DNA of 64,000 nucleotides from an uncultured Gammaproteobacteria bacterium (GCA_965231005.1 OZ246405.1:476223-540222), one strand, 5' to 3'; shown: positions 4,318-63,727, counted from the stretch's first letter. The notes: a model not told the origin generated them from the sequence alone. A program made the numbers and translations.

Positions 4318-4334
4318 AATTAATCTTAGTTCAA

Positions 4335-4372
4335 ACAAAAAACCACCCGCCAATTGGCAGGTGGGTTTTTTG
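4335..4372. terminator. Bidirectional rho-independent terminator
   Basis: Hairpin CCACCCGCC/GGCAGGTGG is flanked by an A-run on one side and a T-run on the other. It lies between convergent genes ending at 4317 (+) and 4383 (-). Coordinates approximate. Confidence 0.6.
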
Positions 4373-4382
4373 GTAGAAAAGT

Positions 4383-4958
4383 TTATCTTTTCTTACGTCT
4401 TTTAGTAGCTTTACGCTTTGCTGGCTTACGTTTCTTTGTAGCTTTACGTTTTGCAGGTTTACGCTTTTTAGCAGCTTTTCTCTTTTTAGGAGCAGCTTTC
4501 TTTTTGCGCTTTGCTGGCTTACGTTTTTTAGTAGCTTTACGTTTTGCAGGTTTACGCTTTTTCGCAGCTTTTCTCTTTTTAGGAGCAGCTTTCTTTTTGC
4601 GCTTTGCTGGCTTACGCTTTGCAACTTTACGTTTTGCAGGTTTACGCTTTTTAGCAGCTTTTCTCTTTTTAGGAGCAGCTTTCTTTTTGCGCTTTGCTGG
4701 TTTACGTTTCTTTGTAGCTTTACGTTTCGCTGGCTTACGTTTTTTAGTAGCTTTACGTTTTGCAGGTTTACGCTTTTTCGCAGCTTTTCTCTTTTTAGGA
4801 GCAGCTTTCTTTTTGCGCTTTGCTGGCTTACGCTTTGCAACTTTACGTTTTGCAGGTTTACGTTTCTTTGTAGCTTTGCGTTTCGCTGGTTTTCGTTTTG
4901 CAGCTTTTCTCTTTTTAGGAGCAGCTTTTTTACGAGTTGCGCGTTTTCGTGCTGGCAT
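4383..4958 (-). CDS. Lysine/alanine-rich histone H1-like (Hc1/AlgP-like) DNA-binding protein
   Basis: Product is MPARKRATRKKAAPKKRKAAKRKPAKRK... made of KRKPAKRKATKK-type repeats. A strong SD (GGAGGTG) sits 6 nt upstream of the ATG on the minus strand. The overlapping ORFs on other frames or strand are repeat artefacts. Confidence 0.7.
   Translation of the reverse strand: MPARKRATRKKAAPKKRKAAKRKPAKRKATKKRKPAKRKVAKRKPAKRKKKAAPKKRKAAKKRKPAKRKATKKRKPAKRKATKKRKPAKRKKKAAPKKRKAAKKRKPAKRKVAKRKPAKRKKKAAPKKRKAAKKRKPAKRKATKKRKPAKRKKKAAPKKRKAAKKRKPAKRKATKKRKPAKRKATKRRKKR
4390..4950. repeat. Tandem coding repeats (about 30-nt subunits, blocks of 90-126 nt) inside the histone-like gene
   Basis: The motif gcagcttttctctttttaggagcagctttctttttgcgctttgctgg recurs at about 4471, 4564, 4654, 4780 and 4900. 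Confidence 0.8.
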
Positions 4959-5230
4959 ATGTACACCTCCTCTCTTTTCGAGAGTATTATATATGTAACT
5001 TTGACATGACCATGGTACACACCAAATGGTATTACATACAAATTTTTTTTACATGACAAGCATTGATGTAAAAAAATTTAAAAAATAAAAAAATATTTTT
5101 CAATCGACCTTTTACAATAGTATAATTTGTTTTTTGTTTTTTTGATATAGTTTTGCGTTGAAAACTGTGTATAACTTTGCAAAAATAAAAAAAGGTTGTT
5201 TTACCTTTTTTTGTTTCTACAATTGTTTTT

Positions 5231-5876: not shown

Positions 5877-6590
5877 TTATGTTGTTAGAAGAAGATTATA
5901 AATGAGTGTTTCTCCGCGGGCTATATAATTATCAAGATCTTTTTTTGACAAAAAAGAACGGTGCCATTCGTAAATATCAATTTGCTTTATCCAAGCAATA
6001 AAGTTTTTCAAGATTTCAACAAGAAGTTGTTTTGCTTTTTTTGTTTTTAATTCAAATTGTTTTGTCATTAAAAACCACTTTACCATTATTTTATATCCAA
6101 TTTTATATAATGTTGATGACGCTGCAAGCTTTTGAATGTATTCGGTTCTGTCTACATGAAGAAGATCAAGTGCGTCTGCATCCTTTAAAATATCCAAAAG
6201 TATTCTGTTTTTCTTTCTTAAAAAGATTTTTGTTAATATTGTTCCTGTCCCCATACTTTTACAGAAAATAATTCTTGTTGCCATTCCAGCCACAGTGCCA
6301 AATAATCCATAACGAATTGTCCAATACCAAAGCATGAGTGCAGAAATAGTGTCATCGATCAGTGGCATAACAATAAAAGATGGTTTACGAGTAATTGTCC
6401 TGCCAACATCATGCCACCACGCAGAAAGCATAAGAGCCTCCCTTTGTTGTCTTGATAAATCATAACTATCAGCAATTGTCTTACAATGGCCAACGACCCG
6501 TTTTACATGGGCAAGATCATGAATAGGATCTTGGGAGCGAGACATCATTTTTTTAGCTAAAATAAGCAATTTTTTGACTTTATTTTGCAT
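5877..6590 (-). CDS. HD-domain phosphohydrolase
   Basis: H..H (HDLAHVKRV) and WWHDVGR motifs are typical of the HD superfamily. Confidence 0.7.
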   Translation of the reverse strand: MQNKVKKLLILAKKMMSRSQDPIHDLAHVKRVVGHCKTIADSYDLSRQQREALMLSAWWHDVGRTITRKPSFIVMPLIDDTISALMLWYWTIRYGLFGTVAGMATRIIFCKSMGTGTILTKIFLRKKNRILLDILKDADALDLLHVDRTEYIQKLAASSTLYKIGYKIMVKWFLMTKQFELKTKKAKQLLVEILKNFIAWIKQIDIYEWHRSFLSKKDLDNYIARGETLIYNLLLTT

Positions 6591-6876
6591 ATATGTTCAA
6601 ATAAACGTGTCTAGTATACCATGGCTGGTAGAAACACTCAATTATGGTATAGTAATAATGCCCAGTTGACCTATTGACAATATAGGAAAATATTGCTAAG
6701 ATTAGCTGTTCGTTCATTACAATGGATCAATCTCGGATCATTGTAGAGTGGCCTTGCTTAACTCATTTTTAGTGAATTGAGCAGGCCCACTCTCTTTCCT
6801 GAGTGGAATCCAAAACAAAGATGGGTAGATCTGGGTTCAGATTTGCCTACAGAACTCGAACACAAAGGGGGACATC

Positions 6877-9051
6877 ATGAAAAAGGGAAATACCTTCTGG
6901 GTATGTACACTCTTGTTGGCCGGCTGCCTGGATGGTGAGCTGGACAACGATGTGATCGGCAAGAAGCAGTGCTTGGACACGTTCCAGGCAGAAGCTCTTG
7001 TCCTGGTCGACTGCGAAGAAACTGTCACATCTTGGTGTGGTGACAATTCAGACAACGAGGATTGCAAGAAGTTCCTGTCGTCTTCGGATGCGGGCGCTGA
7101 TGCAAGCGATGCTGCTGAGGACACTGACACCAAGGTGAACAACGACAAGTGCCAGAAACACAGCGACTGTCCAACACCGAGCAACCCGTGCAAAAAAGCC
7201 GCGTGCGGCAAAGACGTGAAGTCCGGCAACATGGTCTGTACCGAGGTGGGGCCTGAAACTTGCGGCAGCGATGCCAATGGTGATGGAACTGCTGATGGAA
7301 AGGCTGAGGATGCCGATGTCACCGAAGATGTTGGTAGCGATGCAGATACTTCGGACTCTGGTAGCGATGCCAAGGACGCAGGTGACACAGAGGACGGCGG
7401 AGACGTTGCCGAAGTCAAAGACGCTGATGATGCAAGTGATGGAGGCGCTGTTGATGCTGCTGATGCTGCCACCGCAGACACGTCTATGTTCGATGCAGGT
7501 GGCCACGATACTGACGCTGGTTCGGACGACGATGGCGATGCAGCAGGAGATGTTGCTGAAGTCAAAGACGCTGATGATGCAAGTGATGGAGGCGCTGTTG
7601 ATGCTGCTGACGCTGCAACCACAGACACGTCCATGTTCGATGCAGATGGTCAAACGGATGCAGGTTCGCACGACGTTGACGCAGGTTCTGTTGACACCAG
7701 TGGTGACACAGCAGATTCTGGCGTAGACACCAAGGCTGACACAACCACGCCTGCGTGCTCGACAAAGGACTGCGACGACAAGAACCCATGTACGACTGAC
7801 TCCTGTGACAAGCTGAAGGGCTGTGTGAACTTGGCAAACACTGCCACGTGTTCGGACGCAAATCCGTGTACGGTTGGCGATGTGTGTGCTGACAAGGTCT
7901 GCAAGCCTGGCAAGCCGAATACCTGTGATGACAAACTCGCATGCACGGTTGATTCTTGTGACAAGCTGAAAGGATGTGTCCACAAGACAGACAACAGCAA
8001 GTGCGACGACGGGAAGAAATGTACCGACGATACGTGTGTTGTCACAACAGGTTGCATTCACAAGCAGAAATCCGGTTGTGCTCCGTGCACCAAGGCGACC
8101 CGAAAGAAGGACTGCGACGACGGAAATGGCTGTACAGCTGACCTCTGCGTTCAGAGCGCTTGCTACCACGAGTCACTGGACCAAAAGCCCTGTGACGATG
8201 GGAGTAAGTGTACGCAGAGTGATGTGTGTAAGGACAAGACCTGCGCCGCAGGAAAGCAACTCGACTGCAACGACAAGAACGCCTGCACGGACGACGTCTG
8301 TGACCCCAAGACCGGCTGTACGCACAAGAACAACACCAACAAGTGTGAGGACGGGAGCAAATGCACCCTTTCTGATGTCTGCAAGGATGGGAAGTGCGTG
8401 CCGGGCAAGAAGCTCGACTGCAACGACAAGAACGCCTGCACGGACGACGCCTGTAACGCCAAGGCCGGCTGCACACACAAGCAGGATGATAACAACACGT
8501 GTGATGACGGCAACAAGTGCACCAGTGATGCATGCGTTGCTGGCAAGTGCGTCAGCAAGCACATTGCCGGCTGCAAGTCGGTCTCGGTTACCCTTACGGT
8601 CGCTTTGAACACCAAGTTTCAGACGTACATGCAAAACAATCAGCAGGGGCCTTGCAACAAAGCCTTGCGCATCTTTATCGAGAAGTGCGAGGCCAAGAAC
8701 GTCTACGGCAACAAAGTGGTCATCATCCCATCCGGGTTTTATGGAGACTACGATAAAGACATCGTCAAGCTGAAGGAGATAGTGTACACACATCCTACAA
8801 AAGCCGAGGCATGGGTGAAGGGGTCTGCAGATTGTCGCATCAACATCTCGGGCTACCTATCGGAGGTCAAAGACGCACTCAAGGATTATAAGTGTTGGGC
8901 GACGGTGAATCCTCCGAAGGGTGTTAACGAGCTGAAGCCCATTCTCACGACTTCTGCCGGCTGCACGTACGAGTATTCCCTTGCAGACACCTGTCTTCCG
9001 AAGGAACTTGGTTCGCTCATCTGGTGCAACAAAAAGCCCATCTGCAAATGA
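6877..9051 (+). CDS. High-GC, Cys-rich secreted lipoprotein with acidic D/A/G-rich region and about 8 Dictyostelium-type CTDC-like Cys repeats
   Basis: Signal peptide with lipobox LLLAGC. Repeats of the form C-D-D-K-N-x-C-T-x-D-x-C-D-x-x-x-G-C-x-H-K alternate with C-x-D-G-x-K-C-T variants. G+C and codon usage differ strongly from the flanks. Confidence 0.75.
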   Translation: MKKGNTFWVCTLLLAGCLDGELDNDVIGKKQCLDTFQAEALVLVDCEETVTSWCGDNSDNEDCKKFLSSSDAGADASDAAEDTDTKVNNDKCQKHSDCPTPSNPCKKAACGKDVKSGNMVCTEVGPETCGSDANGDGTADGKAEDADVTEDVGSDADTSDSGSDAKDAGDTEDGGDVAEVKDADDASDGGAVDAADAATADTSMFDAGGHDTDAGSDDDGDAAGDVAEVKDADDASDGGAVDAADAATTDTSMFDADGQTDAGSHDVDAGSVDTSGDTADSGVDTKADTTTPACSTKDCDDKNPCTTDSCDKLKGCVNLANTATCSDANPCTVGDVCADKVCKPGKPNTCDDKLACTVDSCDKLKGCVHKTDNSKCDDGKKCTDDTCVVTTGCIHKQKSGCAPCTKATRKKDCDDGNGCTADLCVQSACYHESLDQKPCDDGSKCTQSDVCKDKTCAAGKQLDCNDKNACTDDVCDPKTGCTHKNNTNKCEDGSKCTLSDVCKDGKCVPGKKLDCNDKNACTDDACNAKAGCTHKQDDNNTCDDGNKCTSDACVAGKCVSKHIAGCKSVSVTLTVALNTKFQTYMQNNQQGPCNKALRIFIEKCEAKNVYGNKVVIIPSGFYGDYDKDIVKLKEIVYTHPTKAEAWVKGSADCRINISGYLSEVKDALKDYKCWATVNPPKGVNELKPILTTSAGCTYEYSLADTCLPKELGSLIWCNKKPICK
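7395..7650. repeat. About 115-bp near-identical direct tandem duplication inside the lipoprotein gene
   Basis: Two copies of gttgc[ct]gaagtcaaagacgctgatgatgcaagtgatggaggcgctgttgatgctgctga... differ at 6 positions. The differences are not restricted to adenines. Confidence 0.7.
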
Positions 9052-9062
9052 GTTCAACAAAC

Positions 9063-9165
9063 GATCACCACCCTCTCCTCGCGCATGGTGATCTGCTGTG
9101 GGAGGCTCCGAGCCCGCTCTCGGAGCCTCCCCGGCGCGCATCTCCGAATATTACCATATTCGGAG
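9063..9165. terminator. Cluster of three GC-rich hairpins directly after the island gene
   Basis: GATCACCA...TGGTGATC, then GGGAGGCTCCGAG-cccgct-CTCGGAGCCTCCC, then CTCCGAATAT-tacc-ATATTCGGAG. A T-rich tail follows. Coordinates approximate. Confidence 0.4.
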
Positions 9166-9346
9166 CTCCTCAATTTTCATTTTGTTTATAGAAGTGAAAT
9201 TTGTAAGAGCTTAGAGAAAATAGCTGAAAAAACAGGATTTATGAGTCTTGTTTTTTTCATCTTTATTTGCTATGCTACTGATGTTTTTATAGTGATTGAA
9301 GCACAACGCTTATTGTTCCGAGTGAGAAAAATGTAAATGGGCCTGT

Positions 9347-9419
9347 GGGCCTGTAGCTCAGTGGTTAGAGCACAACGCTTATAACGTTGGGGTCGATGGT
9401 TCAATTCCATCCAGGCCTA
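9347..9419 (+). tRNA. tRNA-Ile with anticodon UAU (gene TAT)
   Basis: Manual cloverleaf fold. Acceptor is GGGCCTG/CAGGCCT with a G1-U72 wobble. D-arm GCTC-AGTGGTTA-GAGC, anticodon stem CAACG/CGTTG with loop CTTATAA, T-arm GATGG-TTCAATT-CCATC. No CCA is encoded. Confidence 0.7.
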
Positions 9420-9464
9420 CAGGCAGATTTACATTGTTTTCGAACGACGGAACAACCTATCAGG

Positions 9465-9504
9465 ATAACGTTGGGGTCGATGGTTCAATTCCATCCAGGC
9501 CTAC
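9465..9504 (+). repeat. Exact 40-bp duplicate of the tRNA-Ile 3' half (att-like scar or tRNA pseudogene fragment)
   Basis: ataacgttggggtcgatggttcaattccatccaggcctac at 9381-9420 is repeated 44 bp downstream. A further 14-nt exact match to the anticodon-arm region (agcacaacgcttat) lies upstream at 9300-9313. Confidence 0.85.
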
Positions 9505-9524
9505 GAGCCGATTTGAATTTTTTT

Positions 9525-10496
9525 ATGACTGACACCATACATATTTCTGAAGAAAACGCAGGCAAGCGCCTGGATGTTTTTTTAGTAGAAGAGACTGGTT
9601 TGAGCAGATCTCAAGTTCAAAAGAGCATTAAAGAACAGTCTGTATTAGTTAATGATGCTCCAGCAAAAAAAACAGGGCAACTTCTACATGCTGGTGATAA
9701 TATTTCTTTTCTTAAAAAGGAAGATGGCCCAACTATTTCAGCCACAAAGGAGCCTGTGCTGCATCCTTCGGATCATCCAATACACATTATTCATGAATCA
9801 AATGATTTTCTTGTTGTAGAAAAACCTGCAGGACTTCTTGTCCATCCAACACAAGCAAGCGAAAAAGATACATTAGCAGGGAGACTGATTCATTTGTTTC
9901 CAGGATTGGCTGGAGTTGGAGATAGTCCTGTCCGTCCGGGGATTGTTCATCGTTTGGATAGAGATGCTTCTGGATTACTTGTTGTCGCAAAAACACAAAA
10001 AATGTTTGAGCACTTAAAAAGTCAATTTAAAGCACGGACAATAAAAAAAGAATATGTTGTTTTAGTGCATGGACTTGTTGAAAAAGAATATGGCTCAATT
10101 GATTTTACCATTGATAGAGGAAAAGAAGGACGTATGGTTGCTCGGCCAAAAGTAACTCTGAATTTAAAAAACGTTAATAAAATGCAGCCAGGAAAAGAAG
10201 CATTAACAGACTATTCTGTTGAAAAGAGATTTGTTCGTCATACGCTTTTGCGCGTAAGAATCCATACTGGTCGTATGCATCAAATTCGTGTACACATGTT
10301 TGCTTTTAATCATCCAGTAGTAGGTGATACACTATATATTAATAAGAAATTATCTAAAAAAAGTGATAGGCCTCTTCATAGGATGTTTTTGCATGCACAA
10401 ACATTGTGCTTCCAAGATCTTTCTGGAAAAGAAATGTGTTTTTCTTCTGAACTTCCACAAGAGCTTCAATCGTATTTAGATGAATTTGATACATAA
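9525..10496 (+). CDS. rluD: RluA-family 23S rRNA pseudouridine synthase (RluD-like) with N-terminal S4 domain
   Basis: Catalytic motif HRLDRDASGLLVVAK is present. I placed the start at ATG 9525, because the longer ORF from TTG 9387 would run through the tRNA. Confidence 0.8.
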   Translation: MTDTIHISEENAGKRLDVFLVEETGLSRSQVQKSIKEQSVLVNDAPAKKTGQLLHAGDNISFLKKEDGPTISATKEPVLHPSDHPIHIIHESNDFLVVEKPAGLLVHPTQASEKDTLAGRLIHLFPGLAGVGDSPVRPGIVHRLDRDASGLLVVAKTQKMFEHLKSQFKARTIKKEYVVLVHGLVEKEYGSIDFTIDRGKEGRMVARPKVTLNLKNVNKMQPGKEALTDYSVEKRFVRHTLLRVRIHTGRMHQIRVHMFAFNHPVVGDTLYINKKLSKKSDRPLHRMFLHAQTLCFQDLSGKEMCFSSELPQELQSYLDEFDT

Positions 10497-10498
10497 GT

Positions 10499-11068
10499 AT
10501 GAAAGCAAAAGGAAACATCATTATTATTTCAGGACCTTCTGGAGCAGGGGAAGATAGCATCATCAATGGACTTGAGAAATTGTTGCCGATTGAGCGTGTG
10601 ATAACCACCACCTCGAGAGAAAAACGTCCGGGAGAAACAGAAAAAGATCCATATTATTTTATTTCAAAAGAAGCATTTGAAAAGGGAATTAAAGATGGAG
10701 ATTTTTTTGAACATGCAAAACACTATAACGATCAATACTATGGTGTGACAACCAGTGAAATAGAACGGGTAAAACAGAGCGAGCATTTGGGGGTTTGGAA
10801 GATTGATTATAAGGGTGTTATCAAAGCAAAAGAACTTATGCCTGACATTCCTGCCATTTTTGTAAATGCTCCTCTTGAGATTCTTGAACAGCGTATTCGA
10901 GGGCGTAAAGATATCACAGAAGCATATGTTCAAGAACGGATGGCTTATACGAAAGAATGGTTACAACATTTAGATATGTATGATTATTCTGTAGTAAATG
11001 AACAAGGCAAATTGAATGAAACAATTGCTCAAATTAAGGCTATTATTGATAAGGAGTTTTCCTCTTGA
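10499..11068 (+). CDS. gmk: Guanylate kinase homolog with degenerate Walker A (GPSGAGED)
   Basis: TTTSREKRPGE...YYFISKEAFEKGIKDGDFFEHAKHYNDQYYGVT aligns with Gmk core motifs. The P-loop Lys and Ser/Thr are replaced by Glu-Asp. Confidence 0.65.
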   Translation: MKAKGNIIIISGPSGAGEDSIINGLEKLLPIERVITTTSREKRPGETEKDPYYFISKEAFEKGIKDGDFFEHAKHYNDQYYGVTTSEIERVKQSEHLGVWKIDYKGVIKAKELMPDIPAIFVNAPLEILEQRIRGRKDITEAYVQERMAYTKEWLQHLDMYDYSVVNEQGKLNETIAQIKAIIDKEFSS

Positions 11069-11151
11069 CAAAAAAGTGCCTTTCAGGTACACTGAGCCTA
11101 CTTTAAAACGTCCGATGTTGGGACCGCTCAACCTCTCGCTAAATATATACT

Positions 11152-11568
11152 ATGTCAGAAGATATTAGAAATTCTCTGAAGCCAGGCATGATTGTCAAGG
11201 TTCATCAGAAAATTAAAGAAAAAAATATTAAAGGAGAAGAAAAACAAAGAATTCAAGTATTCGAAGGTTCTGTACTTGCTGTAAAGCACGGTAGCGAACC
11301 TGGAGCAACAGTGACTGTTCGTAAAGTTTCAAATGGTGTTGGTGTAGAAAAGATTTTTCCAATTCATTCACCTGTTATCGATAAAATTGAATTGATTCGA
11401 GAAATGAAAGTGCGACAATCTCGCGCATATTACCTCCGAACACATAAGAAAAAATTGAAAGAGGTTCGAAAACCAAAAAAGGCTGCAAAGGCGAAAAAAG
11501 CTCCAACAGCTAAAAAGGCTGAACCAAAAAAAGAAGAAAAGAAAGTAGAAAAGGTTGAAGCAAAATAA
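11152..11568 (+). CDS. rplS: 50S ribosomal protein L19 with Lys-rich C-terminal tail
   Basis: FEGSVLAVKHGSEPGATVTVRKVSNGVGVEKIFPIHSPVIDKIEL matches the L19 core. Confidence 0.85.
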   Translation: MSEDIRNSLKPGMIVKVHQKIKEKNIKGEEKQRIQVFEGSVLAVKHGSEPGATVTVRKVSNGVGVEKIFPIHSPVIDKIELIREMKVRQSRAYYLRTHKKKLKEVRKPKKAAKAKKAPTAKKAEPKKEEKKVEKVEAK

Positions 11569-11582
11569 ATGTATAATAAGAA

Positions 11583-11603
11583 CCCCGGGATACCGGGGTT
11601 TTT
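11583..11603 (+). terminator. Rho-independent terminator after rplS
   Basis: CCCCGG-gata-CCGGGG followed by TTTTT. Confidence 0.7.
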
Positions 11604-11750
11604 AATTTGTAGGAATTTTAATTTTAAAAACATCCCGTGTTATCACAGGATGTTTTATGTAGTACTTCGACTTCCTAACTATCTGAACTATGTTTAGCGC
11701 AGATAGTCAGGTGAAGTCGAAGCATGGCAACTACTGCACACTGACTTGGC

Positions 11751-12212
11751 TTAAAAGAGATCAAGGTCACCGAGCTCAAGGATTCTGACTTTGTCTGGCC
11801 GTTCACGTACAAGGTAGGCATCGTAGCCGATGAAGCGTTGTTTGTCCTTCAGGAACAAGGTACGGAGCCACCAGACTTCGTCGTCTATTTGGATCGACCC
11901 GTTTGAATTAACCTTGATTGTCACGCCTTGCTTTGCTGCATTGGTCAGTGAGAAGCGAGGGCCATTTTGGCAGACAATTCCTCCGATTGGATCGCTCGGC
12001 TGAGCAGGATTGCCTTTGGCATCAACGTAGGTGAGATTGGTAGGACAGGAGAAGGCTCTGCTTGGCTCAACTCGGATGATTGGGTTCTGGTACTTACCCG
12101 GTTCAACTCGATAGTAGTGCTCGGTTCCGTCTGCTCCGATCAAGACGATTTTGTAATCGCCAGCCTCTGGGTCAACGGTTAGTCTCCATTGACCAAATTC
12201 GAAGTGTTGCAT
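11751..12212 (-). CDS. Hypothetical protein (153 aa) in a higher-GC islet
   Basis: ORF with SD AAGGGGGT upstream of the MQHFEF start. No recognisable motifs. Confidence 0.5.
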   Translation of the reverse strand: MQHFEFGQWRLTVDPEAGDYKIVLIGADGTEHYYRVEPGKYQNPIIRVEPSRAFSCPTNLTYVDAKGNPAQPSDPIGGIVCQNGPRFSLTNAAKQGVTIKVNSNGSIQIDDEVWWLRTLFLKDKQRFIGYDAYLVRERPDKVRILELGDLDLF

Positions 12213-12362
12213 GGTACCCCCTTTGCTGTGCATTTTTTTATATCATGTTTAAAACAAATGGTCAATGACAAGGATTTCAATATAGTTGTACCATTGACAG
12301 ATTTTCATTTTTGTGATAGGTTAAATCGTCGGCAATACTGCCGCTTTTACATGGAGGCTGCA

Positions 12363-12881
12363 ATGCTCAGCTCTTTGAAAAAAGGAACACTGCGGTTTCT
12401 GTTCCAAGAACTATGCAAAAAAGCTGGTATGCTTCGCAAGTGGATGCCTGCTAACGATGAAACAGCACACATCGTCCGCAAAGTGACTTTGACGTGGGCA
12501 GGAACTCGAGCAGGACAAATTCGTCCAAGCATGCGACATATCGAAATCGAAGCATCCAAACCGTTTACGGTATTGGTTGGGTTCGATCTTTCCATACCTC
12601 TGGTACTGAGCAACGGCTACGATCCATATGGCCAACTTTCTTCAGTCCGCTGTCCTGATGGAATCCACCGTGTTGTTTTCGCAACGTTTGTGGGCAGAGG
12701 ACCAAAGACGTTTGAGCTTCTGGTTCGGTTTGATGTCGATTTGTTCGACCTTGAGGTTGAGGATCTACGAACGCTTTCTTTTGAATACAAAGTAGATGCC
12801 AGATTCGACTTGAGTAACAGTCGAGAACCGCAGGCTGCCTACGAGCCACACAGTTGGCAGAAGTTTGGCTTTTTCAGCTGA
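12363..12881 (+). CDS. Hypothetical protein (173 aa) in a higher-GC islet, divergent from the previous gene
   Basis: GGAGG lies 5 nt upstream of ATG 12363. No recognisable motifs. Confidence 0.5.
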   Translation: MLSSLKKGTLRFLFQELCKKAGMLRKWMPANDETAHIVRKVTLTWAGTRAGQIRPSMRHIEIEASKPFTVLVGFDLSIPLVLSNGYDPYGQLSSVRCPDGIHRVVFATFVGRGPKTFELLVRFDVDLFDLEVEDLRTLSFEYKVDARFDLSNSREPQAAYEPHSWQKFGFFS

Positions 12882-12898
12882 GCACTACACAACAAACG

Positions 12899-12942
12899 GC
12901 CCCAGTACTGAGCGCAGTACTGGGGCCGGAGGATGATTTTTG
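12899..12942. terminator. Strong hairpin (13-bp perfect stem) plus T-run; probable bidirectional terminator between the islet and uvrA
   Basis: GGCCCCAGTACTG-agcg-CAGTACTGGGGCC followed by ...GATTTTTG. Confidence 0.55.
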
Positions 12943-12959
12943 AGCAATATGCTCTTTTT

Positions 12960-15827
12960 TTATTTCATTTCAGCTTTCAAAAATTTTCCAGTCCAACTTT
13001 CTTTTGACTTTATAATATCTTTTGGTGCGCCTTCAGCAACAAGTGTCCCACCTTTTTTTCCACCTTCTGGTCCCATATCAATAATCCAGTCAGCAGATTT
13101 AATTACATCAAGACTATGTTCAATAATTAAGACGGTGTTTCCTTTATCAACCAATTTATTGAGAACACTGAGCAGGCGTTTAATATCATCAAAATGAAGG
13201 CCAGCAGTAGGTTCATCAAGAATATACAGTGTCTTTCCTGTTGCTTTTCTTGAAAGTTCTGTTGCAAGTTTTACACGTTGTGCCTCACCACCAGAAAGGG
13301 TTGTTGCTGGTTGTCCAAGTTTAATATATCCAAGTCCAACATCGCGCAGCACTTGTAACTTATCTGCAATATTTTTTGTGTCAGAGAAAAATGAGTATGC
13401 TTGCTCAATCGTCATTTCAAGAACATTTGAAATGTCTTTTCCACGGTAGTGCACTTCAAGTGTATCTCTGTTGTATCGTGTTCCTTCACATTCATTACAT
13501 TCTACAAATACATCAGTCAAAAATTGCATTGGGATTCTCACATATCCTTCTCCAGTACATGCTTCACAACGACCACCACCTTTTACATTGAAACTAAATG
13601 TTCCAGCATCATAGTTTCGAAGTTGTGCTTCTGATTGGCTTGCAAAAAGATCACGAATACTTGTGAATACACCAGTGTACGTTGCAGGGTTACTTCGTGG
13701 TGTTCGACCAATCGGTGTTTGGTCAATCGAAATAACTTTATTAAGATTGCTTAGTCCTTTTATTTTGGTATGTTCACCTGGTTCTGTTTTTGCTCTGTGG
13801 AAATGCTTGCTGAGTGCACGACTCAAAATTTTATGAATGAGTGTTGTTTTTCCAGATCCAGATACACCTGTTACACAAATTAATTTTGCAAGTGGAATAT
13901 CAACATCAATATTTTTTAAGTTAAATGCTTTTGCTCCAGCAATAGTGATTTTCTTACCACTTCCTTTTCGCACTTTTTTTGGAATAGGAATTTTTTCTTT
14001 TCCAGTAAGGTAGTTTCCTGTTATTGATTTTGCATTTTTCTTAATTTGATTAGTACTTCCTTTTGCAATGATTTCACCACCATAGGTTCCAGCCCCTGGA
14101 CCAACATCAATCACATAGTCAGCAGCTTCAATCAATCCTTTATCATGTTCTACAACAATTACACTGTTCCCAATATCACGAAGATATTTAAGTGTCTTGA
14201 TGAGTTTTTCAGAGTCTTTTGAATGAAGACCAATAGATGGTTCATCTAATATATAAATAACACCAGTAAGACCAGCAGAAAGCTGTGTAGAAAGACGAAT
14301 ACGCTGCGCTTCACCACCAGAGAGTGTATTAAGTGATCTATCAAGAGATAAATAATTAAGTCCTACACGAACAAGATGATCCAATCGTGTTGTTATCTCG
14401 TCAACAATTGGTTTTGCAACAGCCATATGACCTTGCAAGATTGTTTCAACAAATGATGAAGTGTTCTTCGCATCTTTTGCTTTTTTCTTATCCATTGCCT
14501 TTTTTGCAGCGCTAAACAATTCAGCTGCTTCCTCAACACTCATTTCAGAAATATCTGCGATAGAGAATTCTCCAATTTTTACTGCTAAGGATTCTGGTTT
14601 CAATCGTTTTCCATCACACACAGGACATGCGCGTTCACGCATATAATGCTCAATTTCTTTTCGAATGTATTCAGAAGTTGTTTGTAAATGTCGTTGTGTC
14701 AAATTTGGAATAATTCCTTCAAAGTGAACTTTCTTTTTATCAATTTCATACACCTGTCCATCAGTTCCAAAATACAACATGTCCATAACAGATTTTGGCA
14801 AGTCTTGCACAGGAACATGCGTGCTAAAATTATGAGCTTTTGCAACAGCCTCGAGAAGTTTTTGGTAGTGTTGTTGATTTCCAACAATACGTGTCCATGG
14901 TTGAATAGCTCCTTCTGCAAGTGTAAGGCGGGGATTTGGAATAACTAGTTCAGGATCTACATCTAAAATCAATCCAAGTCCACCACATCGCTGACAAGCA
15001 CCATATGGGCTATTAAAGCTAAATGAGCGGGGTTCTATTGGTTCAAAGGTCTTTCCTGTTGCCAAACATACTGGAATGGTTGAATAGGTATGTTCTTCAC
15101 CTTCTTCTTCATTTTCAATAACAACAAAGCCATTTGAAAGATCTACAGCTTTTTCAATAAGTGGGTGAAGCGTTTTGGTTTGTTTTCCTGTTATTCTTCC
15201 GAGCACGATTTCAATATCGTAGTTTCGTGTGAGTTCAAACTTAAATTTGCTGAGTTGTGCAATACTCATTTGCACACCATTTACTCGGAATCTGTCATAT
15301 CCAGTTTGTTCCAATTTTTTGATAAGAAGTTTTGGTTTTATTTGTTGCTGTTTAATAACAGGGGACAGTACAAGTAATTCTGTTCCAGCCTTTGTCAATT
15401 TTCTGACGAGTTCTGTTATTTGCCCGATTGAATGTTGGACAACAGGCGTATTTGTTTCAGGACAAAATTGAACACCAACACGTGCAAATAATAGACGAAG
15501 ATAGTCTGCTATTTCAGTTGCTGTTCCAACAGTAGAGCGAGGATTTTGTGTGTAATTCTTTTGATCAATCGCAATAGTTGGAGAAAGACCTTGGATTTCA
15601 TCGACATCAGGTTTGTCCTGCATATCCATGAATTGTCGAGCATATGCATTTAAACTTTCTGCATATCTTCGTTGTCCTTCTGCGTAAATTGTGTCAAACG
15701 CAAGAGATGATTTTCCAGATCCGGAAAGTCCAGTGATAACAACGAGTTTATTTTTTGGAATGTCTATTGAAACGTTTTTTAAATTATGTACGCGGGCATT
15801 TTTTATGTGAATCATCTGATTGGCCAT
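12960..15827 (-). CDS. uvrA: Excinuclease ABC subunit A
   Basis: 955 aa with two ABC ATPase modules ([20 protein letters not shown]) and zinc-finger CxxC pairs. Full-length UvrA architecture. Confidence 0.95.
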
Positions 15828-15865
15828 AGTATGTTGTTCTTTCTTAGCAATAAATAATTAGTATG

Positions 15866-17272
15866 TTATCTGTATCCGAATTTTCCGTAGAATTTTCTTC
15901 GTTGTGCTGACTGACTTCCTATGTCGACATCGTGAATCAATCCGGCATTGATATTGAGTATGACACCTTTTTTAAGTTCTTCAGCAGTAAGCATGTATTT
16001 TTTATTTTCTGGAACTTTTGCCGTTTGCGAGAATGCTCCATTGTCACCAAGATCAACAATATTATTTCCTATTTTTCCAATCCAGTGGTCTTCGTCGAGA
16101 ATGAAGTCAAAGGCCTCGTTCATATCTAGGTCAAGTACAAATCCTTTGAAGCTTCCTCCAGCACAGTTTTTTACTGCTTTGTCTATTTGTGCATCAGAAG
16201 CTCTTACTGTATAAAAGATTGTTTTTGTCACATCGTCGTTTGCTGTTCCTCCTTGGACTACTTTTTTATGAGATCCATCATCACAAACTGCATATAAATG
16301 TATTGTTTTTACCCACGTCCATGTCCATGATTCTGAAAGTAATTGTCCAGTAAATGAGTCAGCATAGAGATCGCTGTTATATATCATTCCTACAATATTT
16401 GACTTATAGCATCCAGGTGTGTCCTTTGGTCGTTGGAAACACATAAAGGTTTGTCCTGGCGAAGGACCACAGTATGATCCAAGACAGCTTTGCCCTCCAC
16501 TATCTTCTACAATATATTTGCTTCCACAGAGTCCTTCCTTTGCTTCTACATCAAATTTCAATGTTGGATCTTTAGACTTTTTTTCAAGAATTTGTGCTTG
16601 CTCAGCAGCGCTTTTCTCTAAATCTTTTTTGCTTAAAGCAAGAGCAAGTCTTCCTTTTCCTTTCTCACAGAAAAGGGGAGCGTTTTGTTGCGGTTGAATT
16701 AGCCATGTTTGTGGCAATCTAAAATTCACTAAATATGGGTTAACTGTATTTAAAATGAAATAAGAAAGTGACGCTAGAAACATTCCCATGAGCGCACCAG
16801 CTATTTTTTTCTTTGCCGATGTAATTACTTCTGTATTTCCTCCAGAGGTAATCCATCCAAATCCAGCAAGCATAATTACAAGGAGTGCAATGATTCCTGC
16901 AATAACAATGCCATATCTATACATGAGTTGAATGAACTCTCCAACGTTTGCAAAAGAGGTTGTTCCACCAAAACTTGTTTGGGTTTCTGCAACAGTTGAT
17001 GGATAACAAAAACCAATTGGGAATACATCTTTTCCTATCGCTATTTCTGTTCCACCACACGCCTTTTGCGCATCTATCCCTTGGTACAGTGGATTTTGTT
17101 TTGCTTCTTCCTCACTAAGACCAAATGGACCAGACTTTCTAAGTTCAATGCAGTCGTTTAATGTAAAACAGCGGCTGTCTGTTTGTGCCGCTGCAACGTT
17201 TGGAAATATAATACCTATACTTATTGTCAGTACGAAAAGGGGAAGAATTTTTTTGAATAATTGGACAGCCAT
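15866..17272 (-). CDS. Cys-containing secreted or membrane protein with central double-TM hairpin
   Basis: Signal peptide MAVQLFKKILPLFVLTISIGIIFPNVAAAQ. Central YGIVIAGIIALLVIMLAGFGW...IAGALMGMFLASLSYFIL forms a TM-loop-TM unit. I chose the start at the internal Met that abuts the upstream stop; the alternative start at 17338 would overlap dsbA. Confidence 0.5.
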   Translation of the reverse strand: MAVQLFKKILPLFVLTISIGIIFPNVAAAQTDSRCFTLNDCIELRKSGPFGLSEEEAKQNPLYQGIDAQKACGGTEIAIGKDVFPIGFCYPSTVAETQTSFGGTTSFANVGEFIQLMYRYGIVIAGIIALLVIMLAGFGWITSGGNTEVITSAKKKIAGALMGMFLASLSYFILNTVNPYLVNFRLPQTWLIQPQQNAPLFCEKGKGRLALALSKKDLEKSAAEQAQILEKKSKDPTLKFDVEAKEGLCGSKYIVEDSGGQSCLGSYCGPSPGQTFMCFQRPKDTPGCYKSNIVGMIYNSDLYADSFTGQLLSESWTWTWVKTIHLYAVCDDGSHKKVVQGGTANDDVTKTIFYTVRASDAQIDKAVKNCAGGSFKGFVLDLDMNEAFDFILDEDHWIGKIGNNIVDLGDNGAFSQTAKVPENKKYMLTAEELKKGVILNINAGLIHDVDIGSQSAQRRKFYGKFGYR

Positions 17273-17273
17273 A

Positions 17274-18044
17274 TTACGTATTGTTGGTTGATAATTGTCC
17301 GAGTAAGAGTGTATTCCACTGATCTTCTGTGATAACACCTTCTACTTTTACATCGTTTACAAAATAGGTCGGTGTTCCACGAACACCAAGGTCAATACCA
17401 TCTTGTAAGTCTTGTTGTACATTTCTTAAATATTTTTTCGATGACAAACATGTTGAAAATGTTGTGGTGTCCAATCCTAATTGATTTGCATATTGGAAAA
17501 GAGAGGACTCACTCAAATTCTTTTTTTCAAAAAGTAACCCATAATAATTCCAGAATCTTCCTTGTTCTTGCGCACATGCTGCTGCAAGACTTGCTTGTGT
17601 TGCATTTGGATGGATACTGTCAATTGGAAAATGTTTGAATACAATGTGAACGGCAGAATTGTATTGTTTAGAAATTTTTTGAAAGATCGGATACGATTGT
17701 TGACAAAACGGACACTCAAAATCTATAAATGCAAGAATAGTTATTGGTTCGTTTCCACTACCAATCTTCGGGTCTGCTTTTCTAATCCTTTGTAATATAT
17801 CTGGAAGAGAAGCAGTACTTGTTTGATCTGAAAGACCTGGTGTTTTTGTAAATCCAGAAGAAAATTCTTTTGCAAGATCGCCGTCTGTTCCTGTCTGAAT
17901 TTTGAAGAAATAATAACCTGAGATTCCAATAAAACCGACGATAAAAAGCCCAATGATTGATGCAATACCAATCAATAATACTCCAGCAGGTCTTTTGTAA
18001 AAAGGCTTTTTTGTTTGTGTTTCTGTGCTGAAAGAAGTGCTCAT
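17274..18044 (-). CDS. dsbA: Membrane-anchored DsbA-like thiol:disulfide oxidoreductase (CPFC active site)
   Basis: N-terminal TM anchor. Thioredoxin fold with FDFECPFC and the downstream GTPTYFVN motif. Confidence 0.75.
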   Translation of the reverse strand: MSTSFSTETQTKKPFYKRPAGVLLIGIASIIGLFIVGFIGISGYYFFKIQTGTDGDLAKEFSSGFTKTPGLSDQTSTASLPDILQRIRKADPKIGSGNEPITILAFIDFECPFCQQSYPIFQKISKQYNSAVHIVFKHFPIDSIHPNATQASLAAACAQEQGRFWNYYGLLFEKKNLSESSLFQYANQLGLDTTTFSTCLSSKKYLRNVQQDLQDGIDLGVRGTPTYFVNDVKVEGVITEDQWNTLLLGQLSTNNT

Positions 18045-18264
18045 AAAGACGACAGGTCATTTGAATAAACATAGTATAGCATATTTTTTAATCTGTCAAT
18101 AGTTAGGCGGGGACACTTTTTTTCTGGCATCTTTGGACAAAAAAAATCTCGATTTTTCGAGATTTCTTTTGCAGTTTAAACACACAATATATTATATGTT
18201 TAAAGTGGGTTCGCAGTAGTGTGGGAACTACTGCGAAGACCCCCCTTCGTTCTTGTCCCTGGTC

Positions 18265-18939: not shown

Positions 18940-19019
18940 GTGCACCTCCTCGTCCATATTTTTTTGGGACCCTCTATATAACCATATTTTTTGATATACG
19001 TCAAGTCCCCAAGGAAGAT

Positions 19020-19048
19020 TTGACATATATATAGGAAAGTCATACAAT
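19020..19048 (+). promoter_or_regulatory. Sigma70-like promoter (TTGACA-17-TACAAT) for the gene at 19098
   Basis: Hexamers read directly from the sequence. This is a divergent promoter region. Confidence 0.35.
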
Positions 19049-19097
19049 ATAACACATATAATATCCTTAAAAAATCCTTATATTTAACATAAATTTT

Positions 19098-32344: not shown

Positions 32345-32480
32345 CCAGAAATCAGGGACTAAGGTCTAATCTAGGAACTGCTAAATAGAACACAGATTTC
32401 CAGGATTTATACAGATTGACACAGATCAGATCTGTGAAAATCCTGGTCAATCATGGTAATCTGTGTCCTATCTAATCTTT
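32345..32480. repeat. Imperfect-palindrome intergenic repeat, copy A (family shared with 37290 and 49993)
   Basis: Arms aatagaacacagatt...ccaggattt and aaatcctgg...aatctgtgtcctatctaat. About 70% similar to the reverse complement of copy C. Confidence 0.5.
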
Positions 32481-32561
32481 CTTAAAAAAATAGTTAGATC
32501 TCTAATTCTTATTTTTTACAATATTGATTTGAATCTCTACATGCCGTATACTAATGATGCT

Positions 32562-47536: not shown

Positions 47537-47567
47537 AAAAATCTGGCTTAAAGCCAGATTTTTTATA
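47537..47567 (+). terminator. Rho-independent terminator
   Basis: AAAATCTGGCTT-TAAGCCAGATTTT with flanking T-run. Confidence 0.7.
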
Positions 47568-48243: not shown

Positions 48244-48738
48244 GGTCGTCTCCTTCTCGCTCCGTCGGAGCGAATGTGCTCCAGATCGGAGCTGGTGGCT
48301 TTGGTGGTGTCCGCGGAAATGCGAACAAAGGGCGTCCACTACCTATGTCGAGGACTCAATTTCCGTACAACTTTGCACGAGAATTGTCTCCTCAACATAG
48401 GAGTATTTCACACACGCGTATGATGTTATATATTCGCTTGATTGAGCAAAGATATAAACATGTAAAAGAGCAATTTATCTACTAAATTCGGAGGGTATAC
48501 TCCATCTAAAACATACCATAAAATAGGCAAAATGTCAAATGTCAAGAGGTGCTTGTGGATAAGTTTTCTCTCTTCGCAGACCCTAAATTAGGGGTAAAAA
48601 ACAGTGAAATACAGAAATAGTGCGAAAATTTGCTAAAACAAGGGTTAAAATGCGTGGAGTGGGTTTTATCTTTATTTTATTTTTTCTATGGTAGTATCTC
48701 AGTGTTTTTCCACAGCGGACTACACAAAGGAGGTCCAC

Positions 48739-49686
48739 ATGAGAACGTTCATTACACTACTAGCTTTTCTGCTTTTCTGTGCCTGTCAGTCCACAGACGA
48801 GGCTTCAGGATCATCAGACGGCTCTGGCAAGTCCGGTCCAACAGTCCACCAGGCGTACAAGCCCCTGTTCAACTGGGGGCCGAAGCGGATGAAGAATTAT
48901 GGCGACAAGCCATTATCTGAATTGGATACTGCGCTCGAATATAAATACGACGAGCATGGACGCCTCATCAGATTTTTTGGTGAGTTTGATTTTCCAACCA
49001 AGACGTACTATCCAATTCTTTTTTTCTATGGAAAGAATGGTCTTCTTTCCAGAGTTGAAGGCAAAGGGCATTTCGAATATACGTACCAATACAACGATCA
49101 ACTTCAATTGGTTAGGCTTGTATTTTCCTATTATGATTCAGATACAGGAAAATACAGTAACGTAGCGAGCGTTTTGGTTTACACATACGATGAAAATGGT
49201 CGTCTCGCAACTGTTATTGATTATGAGTCTAGCGAAAACTCAGAGCCAGAAGAGAAAGCTGTTTACTCTTGGAATTCTGCAACTGGAGGGCTTGCTCGCG
49301 TAGAGGAGTACAGATATTCAAAAGGTACATGGAAAACCTACAGTGTTGACGAGTACACGTATGAGTCTGGGAAACTCAAGTCACTCAAGAGTAAGTTCGA
49401 AAATTTTACTAGGTCCTGGGTATACACTTGGCGCCCTGATGGATTTTTGGATACAAGGACATTCGATGATAAAGATCAATCAAGATACATCTATCACGAT
49501 GGCAAGTTAGTAAAGGAGTGTCGGTACGTCTGGAAAAACGACAAGTGGAACGACAAGTCTGACTGTAGAGAAATGGAGCATTCTGAGGAAGGATCATCAT
49601 ATACATTTGAGCGTGATTGGTGGCCATCAATGCCTGGGATAAATTCATACATGCTCCTACACTACGGCCACCTGTCCTGGAAGTAG
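48739..49686 (+). CDS. Lipoprotein with YD-type (RHS-like) repeats
   Basis: SD AAGGAGGT 5 nt upstream of MRTFITLLAFLLFCAC. Repeated YKYDEHGRL, YTYDENGRL and YTYESGKL motifs. Confidence 0.65.
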   Translation: MRTFITLLAFLLFCACQSTDEASGSSDGSGKSGPTVHQAYKPLFNWGPKRMKNYGDKPLSELDTALEYKYDEHGRLIRFFGEFDFPTKTYYPILFFYGKNGLLSRVEGKGHFEYTYQYNDQLQLVRLVFSYYDSDTGKYSNVASVLVYTYDENGRLATVIDYESSENSEPEEKAVYSWNSATGGLARVEEYRYSKGTWKTYSVDEYTYESGKLKSLKSKFENFTRSWVYTWRPDGFLDTRTFDDKDQSRYIYHDGKLVKECRYVWKNDKWNDKSDCREMEHSEEGSSYTFERDWWPSMPGINSYMLLHYGHLSWK

Positions 49687-63722: not shown

Positions 63723-63727
63723 TTTTG

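Follow-up and report, generated by a model that had tools for sequence, protein, structure and literature searches.

The question raised by this locus is whether a GC-rich gene lying beside a tRNA gene in an AT-rich bacterial genome is a freshly integrated island or an old resident. In the 64,000-nt stretch of DNA analysed here (the window), a sequence-only reading had described such a segment, with G + C in the mid-50s % against the mid-30s % and GC3-biased codons, as a recent acquisition. The composition was confirmed by 500-nt sliding windows, which gave a G + C content of 0.52-0.56 over about 6850-9165 and of 0.29-0.38 on either side. The GC3 of the ORF in this segment (Table 1) is far above that of the neighbouring genes (n = 28), which lies at about 0.15-0.27 (about 0.20). 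GC1 and GC2 are raised only slightly, so that the shift reflects codon choice and not amino-acid content; the codon TGC, for example, is used at 56% in the gene vs. 6% in the neighbours, AAG at 75% vs. 24%, AAC at 78% vs. 20% and CTG at 30% vs. 4%. The right edge of the segment is sharp (~9165) and the left one gradual (6700-6870), and the segment coincides with a transcription unit whose promoter is AT-rich and host-like. The gene stands out from its surroundings as foreign in composition.

Judged by its UvrA protein, the host is a small AT-rich CPR bacterium, namely a Magasanikbacteria-like Patescibacterium, as those UvrA homologs that bear names belong to Magasanikbacteria/Patescibacteria. 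The host genome has about 38% GC and a size of 1.2 Mb, and a protein identical to the 724-aa product (P0001) is encoded on a 1.23-Mb NCBI contig; the protein cluster of this product has one member. The close relatives were obtained from the UvrA protein search and include four related species (L020, L022, L023, and L024; UvrA 72-81% identical), which together with the window make up five lineages. Scanning collections of genomes and metagenomes with rluD as anchor returned relatives with at most 49% identity, which are too distant for presence or absence to be read from them. An independent ENA assembly (L019) corresponds to 7304-19657 of the window with 1 mismatch in 12,354 nt (99.99%). No papers turned up in a literature search for Magasanikbacteria together with HGT and GC content.

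The window contains at least four further small islets of GC-rich DNA, one of which (11569-12959) is absent from L020, L024, and L001. A common mobile element or MITE behind the islets was rejected, since no DNA is shared among them. A second locus, the ORF upstream of a DsbA-like gene, is syntenic, GC-rich and hyperdivergent in all five lineages. Large secreted Cys-rich proteins elsewhere in the window have a normal GC3 (e.g., 0.21 for a protein of 3051 aa).

Table 1. Features of the GC-rich segment and the adjacent tRNA region (window coordinates).
Feature	Position	Strand	Remarks
Sigma-70-type promoter, TTGACA-17-TAAGAT, extended -10 TG	6674..6702	+	10/12 match
Structured 5' leader	6703..6876	+	hairpins ~6746-6793 and 6822-6850; MFE -58.5 kcal/mol, z=-3.9
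CDS, CTDC-repeat lipoprotein, 724 aa	6877..9051	+	GC 0.539, GC3 0.617; identical protein P0001
Predicted lipoprotein signal peptide, lipobox LAGC, Cys17	6877..6927	+	N-terminus read from sequence
N-terminal region, aa 18-135, 11 Cys	6928..7281	+	without homolog among top family members
Acidic Asp/Ala/Gly-rich low-complexity spacer, aa 136-290	7282..7746	+	D 45, A 32, G 21 per 155 residues
Ten Dicty_CTDC modules, aa 299-565, four Cys each	7771..8571	+	pattern and Pfam
C-terminal domain, aa 566-724, 8 Cys from aa 576, orphan	8572..9048	+	~150-160 aa
Three successive GC-rich hairpins, then T-rich tract	9063-9093, 9094-9136, 9142-9165	+	MFE -66.6 kcal/mol, z=-8.1
Decayed tRNA-Ile 5' copy, D-arm to anticodon loop	9291..9313	+	20/23 identical (87%)
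Intact tRNA-Ile(UAU)	9347-9420	+	74.5 bits
tRNA 3'-half copy (40/40, 9465-9504) and ~20 nt downstream flank	9465..9524	+	abuts rluD start codon 9525

The lipobox, the length and the acidic region of the protein are all present as first described. The N-terminus MKKGNTFWVCTLLLAGC has a positively charged N-region, a hydrophobic core and a lipobox (pattern [LVI][ASTVI][GAS]C) within the first ~25 residues, and lipoboxes also occur in the syntenic homologs of L020 (NMGGC), L023 (LSGC), and L022 (LAAC). Three lipobox ORFs are located in the window, all of them GC-rich, and neither lgt nor lspA was seen within these 64 kb, which are part of the genome only. In the N-terminal region, the motif CLDTFQAEA resembles CIDTFSEAE of L020, and the acidic spacer contains a 147-nt tandem duplication with 93% identity (7399-7505/7546-7652).

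The likeness of the Cys-rich repeats to the Dictyostelium CTDC repeat was borne out by the Pfam model Dicty_CTDC (PF00526; E=1.4e-31, 108.3 bits vs. a cutoff of 27, seven stretches), which places the protein in this family. Ten modules instead of the about eight counted before are recognized by pattern; they form two alternating subtypes with a period of 153 nt. A TIGR02232-like model had also been suggested, but no NCBIfam family matched the protein at E<=1, so nothing TIGR02232-like is present. In an AlphaFold2 model of the array (22-sequence alignment, mean pLDDT 81.5) each module folds into one beta-hairpin, and the array is modelled as a chain of disulfide-bonded beta-hairpins forming an extended stalk.

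The C-terminal domain stays unassigned, as the sequence-only reading had it, in Pfam and PDB. When 1.84 billion representatives were searched exhaustively with HMMER, the domain gave three weak matches only, to Kre9/KNH-type Ig repeats, and relaxed Pfam and PDB sequence searches with the N- and C-terminal parts gave one sub-threshold Cucumo_coat match (E=0.098) in Pfam and none in PDB. The single-sequence AlphaFold2 model has a pLDDT of 33. The domain is probably beta-rich and Ig-like, and appears to be the variable "head" of the protein, with different C-terminal domains in the relatives. A concatenated query of the N-terminal 135 aa and five other GC-rich ORFs retrieved P0001 alone and missed the L019 copies of those ORFs.

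In L020 (887 aa), L022, L023 (719 aa), and L024 (partial), a CTDC gene is located in the same orientation between the HD gene and tRNA-Ile/rluD. The GC3 of gene/flanks is.62/.23 in the window,.63/.27 in L020,.70/.29 in L022,.48/.14 in L023, and.50/.17 in L024, which corresponds to an excess of 0.33-0.41 in all five lineages; the GC3 of the gene tracks that of the host with r=0.97 for five non-independent points. Empty sites at which the promoter is kept were found in L025 and in L026, the sister of L022 (UvrA 89%); the intergenic DNA of L022 and L026 is too diverged for exact indel boundaries (~73% identity even in genes). The gene is also absent from the equivalent site of L001, and CTDC is absent at all more distant rluD loci.

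The promoter elements TTGACA and TGnTAnnAT could be aligned at the same position in the window, L020, L023, L022, and the empty sites of L026 and L025, with a degenerate -35 in L023 and L025. The leader, in which the GC content rises to 0.42-0.44, carries the Shine-Dalgarno sequence AAGGGGG at ~6866-6872; its start (5'UTR) and the start-codon context GACATCATGA are common to the window and L020. Rfam covariance models run on 6400-9700 (E<=1) found the tRNA gene only, with the tRNA model and a below-gathering antisense RF04354 match, and no leader riboswitch or known RNA. The three GC-rich hairpins said to close the segment were found and would act as a terminator block, which marks the sharp right edge; GC-rich hairpins occur at the equivalent place in L020, L022, L023, and L024.

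Within the gene, no DNA-level similarity exists between the relatives, whereas the flanks align at 67-75%. The syntenic proteins are no closer to each other than to members from GC-rich bacteria (L020: 334 bits to P0020, 174 to L023), and the C-terminal domains of the five proteins are of three unrelated types, of which a MAM-like one is shared by L022, L023, and L024 and also occurs in the GC-rich P0097 and P0082. These observations make repeated replacement, as opposed to vertical descent, possible. At four-fold sites of UvrA,.45-.49 of the positions are identical vs..31-.40 expected from composition, and this excess is equal for near and far pairs, indicating synonymous saturation, or near saturation, in the flanking genes. 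Four related species with the same gene type, the same spot, the same odd composition and a shared promoter point to an old resident and do not support the claim of a recent acquisition. As evidence against itself, the sequence-only reading had named close relatives with the same gene and composition at a non-tRNA locus. Such relatives do exist, at the same tRNA locus, however, and the comparison it proposed with relatives lacking the insert yielded empty sites (L025, L026, L001) as well as these four carriers.

The tRNA gene, previously placed 200 bp away with duplicated fragments, does have such fragments, but it lies 296 nt past the stop codon and ~180 nt past the last hairpin. A tRNA-Ile directly upstream of rluD is kept in L001 and L019-L026. 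The fragments bracket the tRNA alone (spacers of 33 and 44 nt) and leave the gene outside, 5' of the tRNA; the 3'-half copy is located ~45 nt 3' of the tRNA and thus points away from the gene. Near the left edge (6600-6900), no direct repeats, tRNA-derived or other, were detected. L024 has an equivalent arrangement with a better preserved 5'-half copy of 39 nt at the equivalent place. In L020, one tRNA abuts rluD, which identifies the copy beside rluD as the ancestral tRNA position. The segment is a single ORF without an integrase (tyrosine/serine recombinase) or mobility gene, none is present among the flanking HD-like, DUF389 and RluD genes, and DNA and protein searches of phage and plasmid collections gave no match. 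The half-copies go back to an old event of their own at the tRNA anticodon loop and are not island ends. It is therefore highly improbable that a tRNA-targeting integrase recently inserted an island from a high-GC donor and left the fragments as att scars. The strong compositional contrast, the tRNA ~300 nt away and half-copies breaking in the anticodon loop, a typical integrase target, would suit such an event, but an integrase, bracketing by att sites and absence from close relatives are all missing, and the "classic" integration signature is not supported. An assembly chimera, in which an AT-rich contig had received a GC-rich fragment of another organism, could produce the abrupt GC change, and the match to L019 starts at 7304, with the left junction (6600-7303) outside. 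The same assembly reproduces, however, the right junction, which is accordingly not chimeric, and two other GC-rich islets. Moreover, the arrangement recurs in relatives, in five assemblies obtained from four sources, and host promoter and terminators frame the gene precisely, so that the probability of a chimera is negligible.

A rather unlikely but more serious alternative is recurrent cassette replacement, by which the interval between promoter and tRNA-Ile would be a hot spot where the lineages independently and fairly recently imported different CTDC genes from GC-rich bacteria (possibly the host cells of epibionts) or from a GC-rich allele pool, with the GC excess as incomplete decay. 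This would explain the three unrelated C-terminal types in complete genes of 724-887 aa, proteins in CPR that are no closer mutually than to GC-rich homologs, a gene present in L022 but not in its sister L026, and the GC-rich DNA still arriving, as the islet missing in L020, L024, and L001 indicates. On the other hand, the window and L020 keep leader and start-codon context, homology arms for exchange with GC-rich donors are absent, a search of 5.8 billion proteins yielded no near-identical donor, gene GC3 follows host GC3, and the second locus, alike in all lineages, would require two hot spots each struck every time. The latter two observations, a constant GC3 offset and a second syntenic, GC-rich, hyperdivergent locus, together with a GC-rich segment that equals the transcription unit under an AT-rich, host-like promoter, fit a native gene that was never transferred. 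Such a gene would belong to ancestral fast-evolving ORFs with a GC content raised by a local process, either biased gene conversion or rare codons slowing the translation of a disulfide-rich exported protein. This explanation is improbable in view of the absence of the gene in L025, L026, L001 and at all more distant rluD loci, the centre of the CTDC family in GC-rich bacteria, and the normal GC3 of other large secreted Cys-rich proteins. Members of the family abound in "Deltaproteobacteria"/Myxococcota-type MAGs of high GC content (63-68%; contigs L009, 68%, and L028, 63%), and with the gene absent from the outgroup sites a horizontal origin is the most economical assumption; in this respect, the proposed high-GC donor holds. 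On balance, a long-resident accessory gene of horizontal origin, and not a fresh tRNA-integrated island, is considered the probable explanation.

For this long-resident gene, a single ancestral insertion would have brought a CTDC gene of the GC-rich family into the ancestor of one Magasanikbacteria-like subclade, in the short gap between an existing promoter and the tRNA-Ile(UAU)-rluD-gmk-rplS cluster. The gene presumably uses the captured host promoter and would have brought its own hairpin terminators; thereafter it would have been passed on at the site, with a loss in one or more lineages, and would have diverged extremely fast with exchange of C-terminal domains. From its architecture, the product would be an adhesin-type surface protein that is exported and lipid-anchored by Cys17. 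The acidic, presumably disordered spacer of about 150 aa would keep it off the membrane, and the ten disulfide-bonded CTDC modules would form a rigid stalk displaying the variable beta-rich head to a putative ligand carried by a host or partner cell or by the matrix. The DsbA-like oxidoreductase encoded 8 kb away could make the ~30 disulfides.

The GC3 excess of 0.33-0.41 persists in five lineages although neutral decay should be complete, which would call for some maintaining force, for example gene conversion biased towards GC, if the locus is prone to recombination, the replacement of alleles by others out of a GC-rich gene pool, or selection that favours non-host codons. Tentatively, an active locus-specific process may be proposed that keeps a GC3 excess of ~0.35-0.4 at a small set of syntenic hyper-divergent genes, among them the CTDC lipoprotein gene and the second locus described above; candidates are GC-biased conversion at surface-protein loci or rare-codon selection in exported disulfide-rich proteins. 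If this is true, a foreign composition is a state kept up over time and does not date the transfer. Island finders should take caution, as a GC jump, a tRNA and its fragments here mark an old syntenic gene, and the tRNA scars belong to another event than the arrival of the gene. With a GC excess beyond saturation and a second locus alike, the case is a testable one for what blocks composition convergence. The locus appears to encode a conserved, rapidly diversifying surface lipoprotein in a CPR lineage that probably depends on cell contact. Its disulfide stalk and exchangeable heads make it a candidate host-attachment factor, and the GC-rich Myxococcota-type bacteria to which the family is tied could be donors or hosts.

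Among known systems, the closest are the PF00526 proteins of GC-rich "Deltaproteobacteria"/Myxococcota-type MAGs (P0002, P0041, P0097), large Cys-rich repeat proteins which likewise have long arrays of four-Cys modules of 24-26 aa followed by a C-terminal non-repeat domain and share 37-47% identity over about 260-320 aa. They differ in length (about 1000-1260 aa vs. 724 aa) and in GC3 (0.76 for P0097 vs. 0.62), and the gene described here sits in a ~38% GC, 1.2-Mb CPR genome; its aa 1-135 and aa 570-724 match none of the 119 best family members. An "Azambacteria" contig bearing P0023 was rejected as a case of CPR-to-CPR spread, because it has 56% GC and four CTDC genes and is probably not CPR. 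Bacterial teneurin-like proteins, which are predicted lipoproteins in Myxococcota, can also carry Dicty_CTDC as an accessory domain (10.1101/2025.11.11.687626, preprint).

With P4-type integrase islands, the locus shares atypical composition, tRNA proximity and half-copies breaking in the anticodon loop. Unlike these, it has no integrase, its gene stands outside the repeats, 5' of the tRNA, and it consists of a single gene with a host promoter that is kept in related species. The tandem small disulfide-knotted beta-hairpin modules, forming an extended extracellular stalk, are reminiscent of eukaryotic adhesins such as the Gal/GalNAc lectin heavy chain of Entamoeba histolytica, EGF-like arrays (Pfs25) and the ecm/prespore matrix proteins of Dictyostelium. 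The Cys-rich region of the Entamoeba heavy chain is the best PDB match of the stalk model (Foldseek, 9gjf_H; E=4e-5, probability 0.96), a local match only (TM 0.18, 19% identity). In contrast to the eukaryotic adhesins, the protein carries a bacterial lipoprotein anchor, and no carbohydrate-recognition domain was identified in it. Finally, the segment resembles the deviant segments of streamlined CPR genomes in being small and of atypical composition, with about five such islets in the 64-kb window. In a paper on CPR genomes, ancient transfers are expected to go unnoticed, having come to match the host in composition; the old syntenic gene described here has not adapted.

The GC content rises to 0.52-0.56 from ~6850 to 9165 and amounts to 0.29-0.38 on both flanks (sliding GC). 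The sole credible gene in this stretch is the ORF 6877..9051(+), termed CTDC gene here, which codes for a Cys-repeat lipoprotein of 724 aa. Its GC3 is 0.617 vs. about 0.15-0.27 in 28 neighbouring genes. GC1 and GC2 are close to normal and all codon families are shifted compared to the neighbours (TGC 56% vs. 6%, AAG 75% vs. 24%, CTG 30% vs. 4%), and therefore the anomaly is one of synonymous codon usage, not of amino-acid content. This bears out the high-GC, GC3-biased segment described in the sequence-only reading, and the lipobox, the acidic Asp/Ala/Gly-rich region and the three GC-rich hairpins at the island's end were likewise confirmed. Its Cys-repeat modules belong to a known repeat family, Dicty_CTDC, although ten were counted and not about eight, whereas the TIGR02232-like model suggested there was not recovered, as no NCBIfam model matched the protein.

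Features of the window and of the CTDC protein
Feature	Position	Strand	Remarks
Promoter TTGACA-17-TGnTAnnAT	6674-6702		upstream of CTDC gene
Lipoprotein signal with lipobox	CTDC protein N-terminus		start MKKGNTFWVCTLLLAGC, Cys17
N-terminal region	after lipobox		CTDC protein; 11 Cys
Asp/Ala/Gly-rich spacer	155 aa		CTDC protein; holds 147-nt tandem duplication
Ten four-Cys modules	aa 299-565		CTDC protein; two alternating subtypes; Pfam Dicty_CTDC, E=1.4e-31
Orphan domain	last about 160 aa		CTDC protein C-terminus
Three strong hairpins	9063-9165		z=-8.1; close off GC-rich stretch
Decayed tRNA-Ile 5' fragment	9291-9313
tRNA-Ile(UAU)	9347-9420		intact
Copy of tRNA-Ile 3' half	9465-9504		perfect, 40 nt
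ORF, 160 aa	11751..12233	(-)	islet 11569-12959; GC3.55
ORF, 230 aa	12189..12881	(+)	islet 11569-12959; GC3.44
DsbA-like thioredoxin-fold protein	17274-18044
ORF, 260 aa	18265..19047	(-)	between DsbA-like gene and S2/EF-Ts cluster; GC-rich stretch 18240-19047; GC3.55
Secreted protein, 3051 aa	38248-47403		100 Cys; normal GC3 (.21)
Lipobox ORF (MYKVMTSLVAALVVATFTFGCS...)	about 47665-48240	(-)	GC 60%, GC3.83
Lipobox ORF (MRTFITLLAFLLFCAC)	48688..49686	(+)	YD/RHS repeat match; GC3.47

The window, with about 36-38% GC, codes for glycolytic enzymes, S2, EF-Ts, L19, UvrA and a DsbA-like protein. Among the UvrA homologs with 66-70% identity, those bearing a name belong to Candidatus Magasanikbacteria or Patescibacteria. 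Within the glycolytic cluster, two paralogous cofactor-independent phosphoglycerate mutase genes (32463-34124 and 34669-36249) are located almost in tandem. An identical copy of the 724-aa protein is present on a 1.23-Mb NCBI contig. L019, an independently assembled ENA contig of the same species, is identical to window 7304-19657 except for a single mismatch over 12,354 nt; the match spans the right junction as well as two additional GC-rich islets and ends within the tandem duplication of the acidic spacer. With respect to a chimeric assembly, the right junction is thus reproduced, while the left one lies beyond the end of L019.

The locus was compared in contigs fetched around the closest UvrA homologs, comprising five relatives and outgroups, for which the UvrA tree is ((WIN, L020, L024), (L023, (L022, L026))), (L025, L027), L001, with WIN denoting the window. 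Four relatives from four different data sources (L020, L022, L023 and L024; UvrA 72-81% identical to the window) have a Dicty_CTDC gene between an HD-like gene and tRNA-Ile(UAU)/rluD, oriented as in the window. In all four it forms a GC-rich island in an AT-rich contig with GC-rich hairpins 3' of the gene, the GC3 of the CTDC gene and the mean GC3 of the flanking genes being.62 and.23 in the window,.63 and.27 in L020,.70 and.29 in L022,.48 and.14 in L023, and.50 and.17 in L024. The lipobox and the acidic spacer are present in all three relatives with a readable N-terminus (L020, L022, L023); in L024 the contig ends within the gene. A run of N (scaffold gap, L022 14795-14894) interrupts the acidic region of the GCA_964349825.1 CTDC gene; the annotated product, at 455 aa, therefore lacks the N-terminus, and the lipobox LILAAC can be read before the gap. 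Empty sites with only 177-312 bp from the HD gene to the tRNA were found in L025 and in L026, the sister of L022 (UvrA 89%), and no CTDC gene was detected in L001 or in the more distant rluD loci examined. Relatives at this distance carrying the same kind of gene with the same composition, in each case at the tRNA-Ile/rluD locus, contradict the recent acquisition that had been proposed.

A tRNA gene with duplicated fragments does lie nearby, as had been noted, but its interpretation as a classic foreign-DNA integration signature was rejected. The CTDC gene is located 5' of the tRNA-Ile and outside the half-copies, which are separated from the intact tRNA by 33 nt on its 5' side and 44 nt on its 3' side, with nothing else between. 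Neither an integrase nor another mobility gene was found among the ORF and its flanking genes, nor was a direct repeat, tRNA-derived or other, at the left edge of the GC-rich segment. The same order of 5' half, full tRNA and 3' half occurs in L024 with better preserved copies, whereas L020, L022 and L023 have a single tRNA-Ile, in L020 adjoining rluD. The fragments are broken in the anticodon loop and are probably traces of an old event, an insertion or a duplication, that affected the tRNA itself and had no connection with the CTDC gene.

A tRNA-Ile with UAU anticodon is located directly upstream of rluD throughout L001, L019-L026 and the window. This anticodon is an unusual bacterial solution for AUA decoding, for which most bacteria use a lysidine-modified CAU tRNA. 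The longest rluD ORF (TTG 9387, 369 aa) crosses the tRNA and the 3'-half copy (9387-9524), and the L019 gene call (9162-10262, 366 aa) is over-extended likewise; translation most likely begins at ATG 9525 (323 aa), which is also the start in L020.

The promoter upstream of the CTDC gene is conserved and keeps a constant distance from the HD gene whether the site is occupied or empty. It is thus older than the gene, which is located between it and the tRNA-rluD cluster. This promoter-capture arrangement is one of the non-trivial points. Conservation between the window and L020 extends to roughly the first 40 nt of the leader and to the start-codon context (GACATCATGA), which argues that at least these two CTDC genes derive from one insertion.

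Among the top 119 homologs, the similarity is confined to the repeat region (37-47% identity), and for those that could be placed, the contigs are GC-rich (68% and 63% GC) and carry the label Deltaproteobacteria. Two such proteins share the MAM-like C-terminal domain with the proteins of L022, L023 and L024. The phage and plasmid collections searched gave no match. Given the empty sites in outgroups together with the GC-rich homologs, we infer, as the most economical origin, that an ancestor received the gene from a lineage with high GC and many CTDC proteins; the proposed high-GC donor is thereby retained, its recency is not. HGT-derived islands in Patescibacteria have already been documented (PMC12455944). 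A 45-kb contig labelled Candidatus Azambacteria (L008, JACRAK010000032.1; 56% GC, patchy composition) carries four CTDC genes in 10 kb; this label may result from mis-binning, since the composition is unlike that of the AT-rich Patescibacteria loci examined.

An old transfer leaves the persistence of the GC excess to be explained. At four-fold degenerate sites of UvrA, the lineages are 45-49% identical vs. 31-40% expected from composition alone, and this excess looks like a plateau and not like residual signal because it is equal for the 81% and 72% pairs. A neutral foreign gene predating the splits should then have lost its GC3 excess. The CTDC gene retains an excess of 0.33-0.41 in every lineage, and its GC3 follows that of the host (r=0.97 over n=5 points that are not independent). 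A second such locus lies upstream of the DsbA-like gene, where each of the five lineages has a GC-rich ORF (GC3.31-.59 in the four relatives; L023 modestly,.31 vs..13) that is missing in L025. These ORFs are hardly alignable, with only the window and L024 matching (25% identity, E=4.5e-5).

Three observations speak against simple vertical descent: the similarity among the five CTDC proteins does not exceed their similarity to GC-rich members of the family, their C-terminal domains are of three unrelated types, and no DNA similarity exists within the gene among the relatives. Alleles may have been replaced repeatedly from a GC-rich pool. Alternatively, a local force, either biased gene conversion or selection favouring non-host codons, would hold the GC content high; such active maintenance is considered possible but rather doubtful. 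Beyond the refutation of a recent, tRNA-mediated event, the non-trivial result is that the compositional anomaly persists at two syntenic loci.

Further features, most of them GC-rich, were found in the window. A second islet (11569-12959, 45-53% GC) between rplS (L19) and uvrA, both ORFs of which are without a Pfam hit, is also contained in L019 and is a lineage-specific insertion, as L19 and uvrA are only 31-41 bp apart in L001 and L020. Two more GC-rich lipobox ORFs are located at 47600-49700; all three lipobox ORFs of the window are GC-rich. A GC-rich ORF of about 130 aa (63206-63590, minus strand; MPTQRKPIVLILEDEGG...) resembles a CheY-type receiver and adjoins two tRNA-Ser genes (63727-63814, 63890-63979); the listed 220-aa ORF is probably over-extended because it crosses one of them. 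The 3051-aa gene is followed, directly after its stop codon, by clustered inverted repeats of very high GC (47400-47510, 64% GC in 100 nt) and then by a canonical terminator (about 47540-47565). In the tandem-repeat region 4331-5059, both strands contain long ORFs and the AT skew is extreme (-0.6); the minus-strand N-terminus (IPFGVYHGHVKVT) matches small Lys-rich proteins in the same place in L020. Extracytoplasmic disulfide formation seems important in the source organism, and the 3051-aa protein demonstrates that Cys-richness alone does not entail high GC.

Judged from its architecture, the CTDC protein would be exported and lipid-anchored at Cys17. A disordered acidic spacer would follow, then ten disulfide-bonded beta-hairpin modules forming a stalk and, at its end, a variable C-terminal head. 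Fast divergence and head swapping would fit a surface protein facing a changing partner, which is plausible because bacteria of the candidate phyla radiation are thought to live attached to other cells. For Dicty_CTDC, no solved structure was available as of a 2021 survey (PMC8078820). The AlphaFold2 model of the stalk (pLDDT 81.5) has one hairpin per module, and its best structural match, local only, is to the Cys-rich portion of the Gal/GalNAc adhesin from Entamoeba.
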